64,000 nucleotides of DNA, from NCBI RefSeq assembly GCF_055900595.2, contig NZ_CM148325.1; one strand, 5' to 3'. Positions 58,645-59,134 of the stretch are shown here, in pieces (position 1 is the first letter of the stretch; the number at the start of each line of letters is the position of its first letter). The notes below the pieces were generated by a model, which was not told the origin of the DNA, did not search any database, and saw only the letters and a program-made list of their open reading frames with translations. Made by a program: the position numbers and the translations under genes.

Positions 58645-58651
58645 ATGAGCA

Positions 58652-58680
58652 AAACGCCCTCCTCCAGGGCGTTTATTTCA
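58652..58680 (+). terminator. rho-independent terminator after the coupled cargo genes
   Basis: ACGCCCT-CCTCC-AGGGCGT hairpin followed by TTATTT. Confidence 0.55.
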
Positions 58681-59134
58681 ATGCACAATAGTGCACAAAT
58701 TTGCACAATTTTTTTGAACGACTTTTTGCCCTTCCGGCCCGTGTGGCGTCTGGATCCGTCGGGGATCCGTGCGTGCACGAAAAAAGGCCTTTTTCTGCGC
58801 GCAGGTGACGGGGGAACAGCCCGCGTTTCAGGGGGTAAATAGCATTCCCTGAACGATGTTGCAGCGACACAACAGAATGGCTGTATTTCTCACGCTGAGC
58901 GTAAAAAAGACGTAAAAGCTTGATTTGATGGGGGTGAAAGATAAGGCCGTCAAAATCGCACTGAGGCAGCGAGAATATGTCGTCAGAGTTGCGGGGTTGC
59001 GTAAGCATCCGCCCGGCGATGATGGCTACAAGGTTGGAGATGTTGTGAAATTATCTGAAGGAATAACCAGCTTGCAGGAGAACCCGGGCAAAGTCAGAAT
59101 AGCGGCAGGCATCAACTCAAAAGAGGATAATGTC

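Follow-up and report, generated by a model that had tools for sequence, protein, structure and literature searches.

The cos sites of the phages P2 and 186/PSP3 and of the satellite P4 have 19-nt 5' cohesive ends and share a core of 55 bp (Ziermann and Calendar 1990); the 19-nt ends are annotated in the GenBank records of P2, 186, and PSP3. P2 and P4 share only cos (PMC9122126), and both the location of cos in the P2 family and the region between gpA and cos as a hotspot have been published (Rousset 2022, PMC9122126). In phiRSA1 and phiRSY1 of Ralstonia and Smp131 of Stenotrophomonas, the P2-family cohesive ends begin GGTGAGGCGGGG or GGCGTGGCGGGG; the ends of phiRSA1 were determined experimentally and those of Smp131 were set by analogy to P2 (PMC5694545, PMC3931495). 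Foreign genes lodged between cos and the portal gene Q have been noted before in phiCTX and phiRSY1 (PMC5694545). We found no paper on the cos of P88 or Xuanwuvirus, and neither the sequence records nor the literature yielded experimentally mapped DNA ends for phages of the P88/Xuanwuvirus type.

We analyzed a continuous stretch of 64 kb of Escherichia coli DNA (hereafter the window), which holds a P2-family prophage adjoining rraA. DNA similarity places this prophage in the P88 group (genus Xuanwuvirus, Peduoviridae). At least 80% of the segment 57000–60000 is present in 19 complete E. coli genomes; among the matches listed, 17 are at 100% identity and two at 99.7–99.9%. The gene order of the prophage is int, repressor, cox, early genes, gpA, small cargo ORFs, a noncoding stretch, a 167-aa gene, portal Q, terminase P, and scaffold O. 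The genes on either side of the region of interest are:

54580–57090: replication endonuclease gpA
57087–58644: small cargo ORFs
59705–60760, minus strand: portal Q, with its stop codon at 59705
60760–62511, minus strand: terminase P

Features of the stretch between the cargo genes and Q

The stretch 58645–59134 had been described in an earlier note on this DNA as noncoding, rich in repeats and palindromes, and possibly including cos. The features recognized in it and in the adjoining DNA up to Q are:

58652–58674, plus strand: intrinsic-terminator hairpin AAACGCCCT-cctcc-AGGGCGTTT (inverted repeat), followed by ATTTC
58682–58715, plus strand: repeats R1 to R3, TGCACAA at 58682, 58692, and 58702 with an exact period of 10 bp, followed by a T7 tract
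58716–58773, plus strand: spacer between R3 and R4, conserved in length and largely variable in sequence
58774–58795, plus strand: repeat R4, TGCACGA (TGCACAA in relatives), with an A6 tract, followed by a 14-bp palindrome
58796–58825, plus strand: the most conserved segment, TGCGCGCAGGTGACGGGGGAACAGCCCGCG, predicted cosN
58826–58845, plus strand: right part of the core, TTTCAGGGGGTAAATAGCAT, common to satellites and including the left arm TTCAGGG
58846–59058, plus strand: genus-specific segment, conserved only within Xuanwuvirus
59059–59641, plus strand: cargo insertion of 583 bp with the 167-aa gene, replacing 9 nt (CTGATACAG) of P88-type phages
59135–59638, plus strand: the 167-aa gene (PHROG 5091)
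59655–59677: hairpin GGGGCATAAA-ttt-TTTATGCCCC, between the cargo gene and the Q stop codon at 59705, conserved in P88-like phages

The terminator that had been placed after the upstream genes is the hairpin at 58652–58674, which ends the upstream cargo operon and is part of the variable cargo, outside the putative cos; in an alignment of eight phages (described below), the others have different terminator-like hairpins set directly against the first repeat of the putative cos. The tandem repeats of GCACAA type are also present, in the form of three copies of TGCACAA. This is the sole 7-mer triple at a period of 10 in the 64 kb of the window, where TGCACAA occurs only once more. The triple is clearly nonrandom, and it is the only one of the listed features that is clearly beyond chance.

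The spacer after the triple holds a moderately conserved TTGCCCTTCCGG at 58726–58737 and two copies of GGATCCGT (58752–58759 and 58763–58770). Each copy contains one GATC, and these two are the only GATC sites in 58645–59134; they correspond to the tandem repeats with Dam sites reported earlier. Close direct repeats of 8 nt are common, with 21 in the window compared with 6.3 in shuffled sequences. A perfect palindrome of 16 bp had also been claimed, but its string GAAAAAGGCCTTTTTC is absent: The actual sequence is CGAAAAAAGGCCTTTTTCT, with six A against five T, and the perfect palindrome is limited to the 14 bp of AAAAAGGCCTTTTT at 58781–58794. Perfect palindromes of 14 bp are at chance level (four in the window, 3.75 expected from shuffles). 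The inverted repeat TTCAGGG/CCCTGAA was found as described, with arms at 58827–58833 and 58847–58853 and a loop of 13 nt. As a 7-nt inverted repeat it is unremarkable alone; its right arm falls outside the shared core and is absent from the satellite introduced below.

No Rfam match for a structured RNA was obtained in 58600–59200, either at the gathering threshold or at E ≤ 1, and the RNA folding of the stretch is not unusual (z-scores of −0.62 and −0.07). The statement that the stretch has no convincing ORF holds for 58645–58927; from 58928 onward, however, RefSeq/PGAP calls a CDS of 236 aa.

Conservation among phages and in a satellite family

We aligned the region from P88, 503458, P884B11, PhiR44_2, Chuche, phiSM, Enterobacter phage phiT5282H, and the window. 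In all eight, homology starts exactly at the first TGCACAA (58682), and upstream of this point the phages have unrelated DNA. The homology reaches 59058 within Xuanwuvirus; in phiT5282H (Novemvirus) and in a divergent prophage of E. coli AMSCJX04, conservation is recognizable only over 58682–58825. This shows that the stretch does not lie inside the cargo locus, as had been proposed, but is a constant boundary between two variable slots. Of 5426 complete E. coli genomes, 1148 (21%) carry the core, 58682–58845, nearly always at full length from 58682.

A set of 120 viral loci was collected from IMG/VR by means of the exact core 18-mer GCGCGCAGGTGACGGGGG. It should be noted that this procedure forces conservation of 58797–58814 in the IMG/VR set, a bias of which the relatives found by BLAST are free; in four divergent lineages found by BLAST, the segment 58796–58825 is invariant. 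In about 110 of the IMG/VR contigs, 260–960 nt separate the 18-mer from the stop codon of the portal gene, always with the same orientation, and the portals of these contigs are 66–100% identical to that of the window. The distance from the core to the Q stop codon is about 260–340 nt in P88-type phages, compared with about 900 nt in the window because of the insertion of 583 bp. The ends of the IMG/VR contigs show no pile-up at any one position.

Only the TGCACAA repeats, out of four features named in the earlier note, are conserved across lineages. The copies of GGATCCGT are kept within Xuanwuvirus and are missing in the satellite, phiT5282H, and AMSCJX04; the palindrome is conserved in position and not in sequence, even within the genus (P88 has AAAAAAACGCGCTTTTTC); and the TTCAGGG/CCCTGAA repeat is lineage specific. 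A conserved GC-rich dyad in the spacer between R3 and R4, which would explain GGATCCGT, was considered and rejected, the best inverted repeats in 45 sequences being no longer than those in shuffles. Two IMG/VR loci (L113 and L049) carry a variant core whose fourth TGCAC follows directly on the second (TGCACAATAGTGCAC followed by AAAAAACGCG). This variant resembles a deletion by recombination between repeats, and it adjoins a portal gene only 30% identical to that of the window.

The distribution of the block bears on the proposal that the stretch serves the downstream 167-aa gene as its promoter-operator, with the repeats as sites for a regulator. The stretch does lie upstream of this gene, and repeats phased at 10–11 bp together with a palindrome are operator-like. 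However, the 167-aa gene is missing from P88, P884B11, Chuche, phiSM, and the satellites, in which the block is no less conserved, and the gene itself came in a separate insertion of 583 bp that starts at 59059. The repeats are, moreover, 430–450 nt from its start codon, and the plus strand has no sigma-70-like site in 57900–59900. A promoter-operator function, which had been offered as the alternative to cos, is thus very unlikely.

One weak E. coli match to the core (80.5% identity) lies outside any phage, in an island of 12.5 kb between hpt and gcd. This satellite-like island (L138, about 1900–14800, equal to about 4030400–4043300 of E. coli DLI.6n, NZ_CP103974.1) has genes for two integrases, an Icd-like protein, a toprim primase of 889 aa, an ogr/Delta-like protein, a P2-family major capsid protein, and MazEF; terminase, portal, and tail genes are absent from it. 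Three IMG/VR contigs (L057, L114, and L124) belong to the same satellite family. The only DNA common to this family and the P88-like phages is a segment of about 165 bp, corresponding to 58680–58846 of the window, and the homology of helper and satellite ends near 58845. The core in this respect resembles the cos of P2 and P4, which is likewise common to helper phage and satellite, and the sharing is the strongest functional argument, short of experiments, for a role in packaging.

Over 326 aa, the product of the satellite capsid gene is 34% identical to a helper-type gpN; it is unusual for a P4-style satellite to encode its own capsid protein.

Comparison with mapped cos sites and the predicted cohesive end

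The cos sites of P2, 186, and P4 lie between the accessory region and the portal gene Q. The core has the same place, between the gpA-side cargo and Q and upstream of the Q terminator, as does cos in P2 and 186; the hairpin at 59655–59677, before the Q stop codon, corresponds in position to the annotated terminators tQ of P2 and tW of 186. Alignment to the cos regions of known phages, suggested as a check in the earlier note, gave a divided answer. A search of the window with an nhmmer profile built from the cos regions of P2, P4, and 186 found nothing significant, and sequence homology to the classical cos can therefore not be claimed from the profile. The layout of short motifs, however, is colinear. 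In P2, P4, and 186, the annotated top-strand nick is preceded by TGCAT motifs at −124/−123, −111, −101, and −29; the corresponding TGCAC motifs of the window stand at 58682, 58692, 58702, and 58774, and the spacings of 10 nt from second to third and 72 nt from third to fourth are those of P2, P4, and 186, with the same offset from the fourth motif to the predicted nick.

From P2, P4, and 186 alone we derived the pattern TGCAY, a gap of 5–8 nt, TGCAY, 5 nt, TGCAY, 66–68 nt, TGCAY; it should be noted that the TGCAY array at fixed offsets from the nick is a feature derived here from these three genomes and no established criterion. The pattern has a single match in the 64-kb window, at 58682, with a chance expectation of about 2e-5. 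It also matches 78 of the 120 viral loci, only at the position of the core and nowhere else in 1.24 Mb, and the motif offsets hold in 40 representatives with pairwise identities below 85%.

Further likenesses concern the DNA around the predicted nick. P2, like the window, has a dyad and an A-rich stretch in the interval from the fourth motif to the nick (TGCATTAAAACC together with a GC-rich dyad in P2, whereas the dyad of the window is A/T-rich), and sites of the P2 type, like the predicted site of the window, have a G-rich overhang that starts GG(C/T)GA, with flanks of GCGCGC type. The window differs in the spelling of the motif, TGCAC(A)A instead of TGCAT, in the first motif spacing, 10 nt instead of 12–13 nt, and in its predicted 19-mer, which agrees with the P2 19-mer at only about 13 of 19 positions. 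In an ungapped alignment made by eye, 17 of 26 positions agree between GCGCGCAGGTGACGGGGGAACAGCCC and GCGGGCGGGCGAGGCGGGGAAAGCAC; any homology to the classical 55-bp core would rest on this match together with the motif layout. A diverged cos with a retained layout is to be expected, because gpM and gpP are only 36% and 46% identical, respectively, to their P2 counterparts.

The core has the position expected of cos, is conserved whatever DNA flanks it, occurs in satellites as well, and follows the layout of the cos sites mapped in P2, 186, and P4; for these reasons, 58682–58845 very probably contains the cos of this P88-like, P2-family prophage. The earlier suggestion that the stretch may include cos would accordingly apply, on comparative evidence, to about 58682–58845, but not to the rest of the interval.

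The same layout also speaks to a reading of the array as an iteron-type replication origin or a partition site. Three helically phased direct repeats beside an A/T-rich tract resemble iterons, and parM-like genes are found nearby in some relatives. The replication origin of P2-family phages, however, lies within gene A, and the array is present with or without par genes. Its layout recurs at a fixed distance from the mapped nicks of P2, P4, and 186, and the satellites have a primase of their own, yet share only the core block. An origin or partition site is hardly credible on these grounds, and we retain cos as the preferred reading.

In P2, P4, and 186, the offset from the motif equivalent to R4 to the nick is 29 nt, and applying it to the window places the top-strand nick at about 58802/58803. 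We consider that the nick probably falls after TGCGCGCA, with about 58803 as its predicted exact position; the 19-nt 5' cohesive end would then be GGTGACGGGGGAACAGCCC (58804–58822, ±2 nt). The junction TGCGCGCA^GGTGACGGGGGAACAGCCC resembles GCGGGCG^GGCGAGGCGGGGAAAGCAC of P2, and TGCGCGCA^G matches the context of the P2 bottom-strand nick, AGCGCGCA^G. The cohesive ends of P2 (GGCGAGGCGGGGAAAGCAC), phiRSA1 (GGTGAGGCGGGGTCCAAC), and Smp131 are similar to the predicted overhang, which starts like the GGTGAGGCGGGG of phiRSA1. Both phiRSA1/phiRSY1 and Smp131 differ from the prophage of the window in their hosts and flanking sequence.

A different nick position is suggested by P884B11 (NC_049391), the only linear record of the genus and the only phage record that we found with its ends inside the core. 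It starts with TGCCCTTCCAGCCC, at the equivalent of 58727 and 77 nt upstream of the predicted nick, and ends with GAACGAATTTT. Were the nicks made at this junction, between 58726 and 58727, cos would still lie in the core, but with the GC-rich TGCCCTTCCGGCCCGTGTG as the overhang and the GCGCGCAGGTGACGGGGG block serving as a recognition element instead of cosN. The junction does not look arbitrary, being a boundary between a T-run and GC-rich DNA inside the core. However, the record shows neither terminal redundancy nor annotated ends, and we found no paper on it; the segment at 58727 is poorly conserved in distant lineages; and the spacing rule from P2, P4, and 186, with R4 at −29, points to 58803. 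A similar element, TTGCCCGTTCTGG, is present in 186, where it is not the nick site because it lies about 80 nt upstream of the mapped nick. We regard nicking at the P884B11 junction as unlikely and favor the nick near 58803.

With this nick, a working model can be formulated. After induction, the terminase (small subunit gpM, large subunit gpP) would recognize the core on replicated phage DNA, make two staggered nicks, and thread the DNA into the procapsid through the portal gpQ. The three TGCACAA copies on one face of the helix with their T-tract (58682–58715), together with the fourth copy 72 nt further on (58774), would form a recognition array analogous to cosB, and we infer that the protein reading the TGCACAA repeats is the terminase. 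The invariant TGCGCGCA^GGTGACGGGGGAACAGCCC would be cosN, giving rise to a G-rich 5' overhang of about 19 nt (58804–58822). The cos of lambda (cosQ–cosN–cosB) has no sequence relation to the proposed core, but it likewise combines a nicking site of partial two-fold symmetry with an adjacent repeat array for the small subunit and bent DNA. In lambda, the overhang is 12 nt, the R-sites occur with an IHF site, and packaging proceeds from concatemers; the terminase of the P2 family is reported to use circular monomers.

More tentatively, the array of phased TGCAY motifs (three and, 72 nt on, a fourth) could be the small-subunit recognition code of all P2-family phages, its spelling (TGCAT in P2 and 186, TGCACAA in P88) setting which satellites can be packaged; this is a possibility that we would put below an even chance. 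If true, the P88-type cos would mark out a distinct packaging-specificity group that occurs in about one-fifth of E. coli genomes and has a capsid-encoding satellite family of its own.

As cos, the core would belong to a familiar class of elements, essential to the phage but otherwise ordinary, here in an unmapped variant; it would represent no new kind of biology, although it would be of use as an anchor in annotation. Its location would fix the genome ends of a prophage type that is very common in E. coli (21% of complete genomes), and the core would identify satellites that are likely mobilized by P88-like phages. The minimal element of about 165 bp might also find use in cosmid-style delivery vectors with P88-like helpers.

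The Q side of the core and other features of the prophage

The core forms an invariant anchor between two cargo slots, the known defense hotspot between gpA and the putative cos and a smaller slot between the latter and Q. On the Q side, the genus-specific segment contains an ORF of 42 aa (58934–59058) that is annotated in P88 and P884B11. It shows no excess of variation at third codon positions and is broken in two of 27 unique sequences; in the window, its stop codon is lost, and the frame from 58934 continues without a shift into the gene that follows. Between the equivalent of 59058 and the hairpin before Q, the phages P88, P884B11, Chuche, and phiSM have only 9 nt, the place taken in the window by the 583-bp insertion. 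The first part of the insertion, 59059–59134, is the leader of the inserted gene and includes a GAGGA ribosome-binding site.

The RefSeq/PGAP model of 236 aa (WP_223942718.1, 58928–59638) consists of the remnant of the 42-aa ORF fused in frame to the 167-aa gene. This model is probably too long, because the PHROG 5091 profile begins at the Met codon at 59135, and the start given in the earlier note, 59135, is thus better than that of PGAP. The 167-aa protein matched PHROG 5091 only, with no match in Pfam or PADLOC.

PhiR44_2 has a distantly related gene of 174 aa in the same slot, which resembles a second, smaller site for cargo between the putative cos and Q; in phiRSY1, as in the window, the cos–Q slot is used for foreign genes.

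Several minor observations concern the remainder of the prophage and the window. The last ORF before the stretch (133 aa, 58243–58644) has a chimeric look, its N-terminal half matching PHROGs 60, 3323, and 660 and residues 72–133 matching PHROG 13916 (labeled "DNA ligase"); PGAP records only a truncated pseudogene at 58243–58644. In the early region of the prophage, Rfam matches to isrK (53614–53689) and C4 antisense RNA (53725–53812) sit just upstream of a gene for a "derepression protein" and represent an antisense immunity module in the style of P1/P7. Further Rfam matches in the window are the sRNA STnc130 (47987–48121, plus strand) and the RNA-OUT of IS10 (796–865, minus strand).
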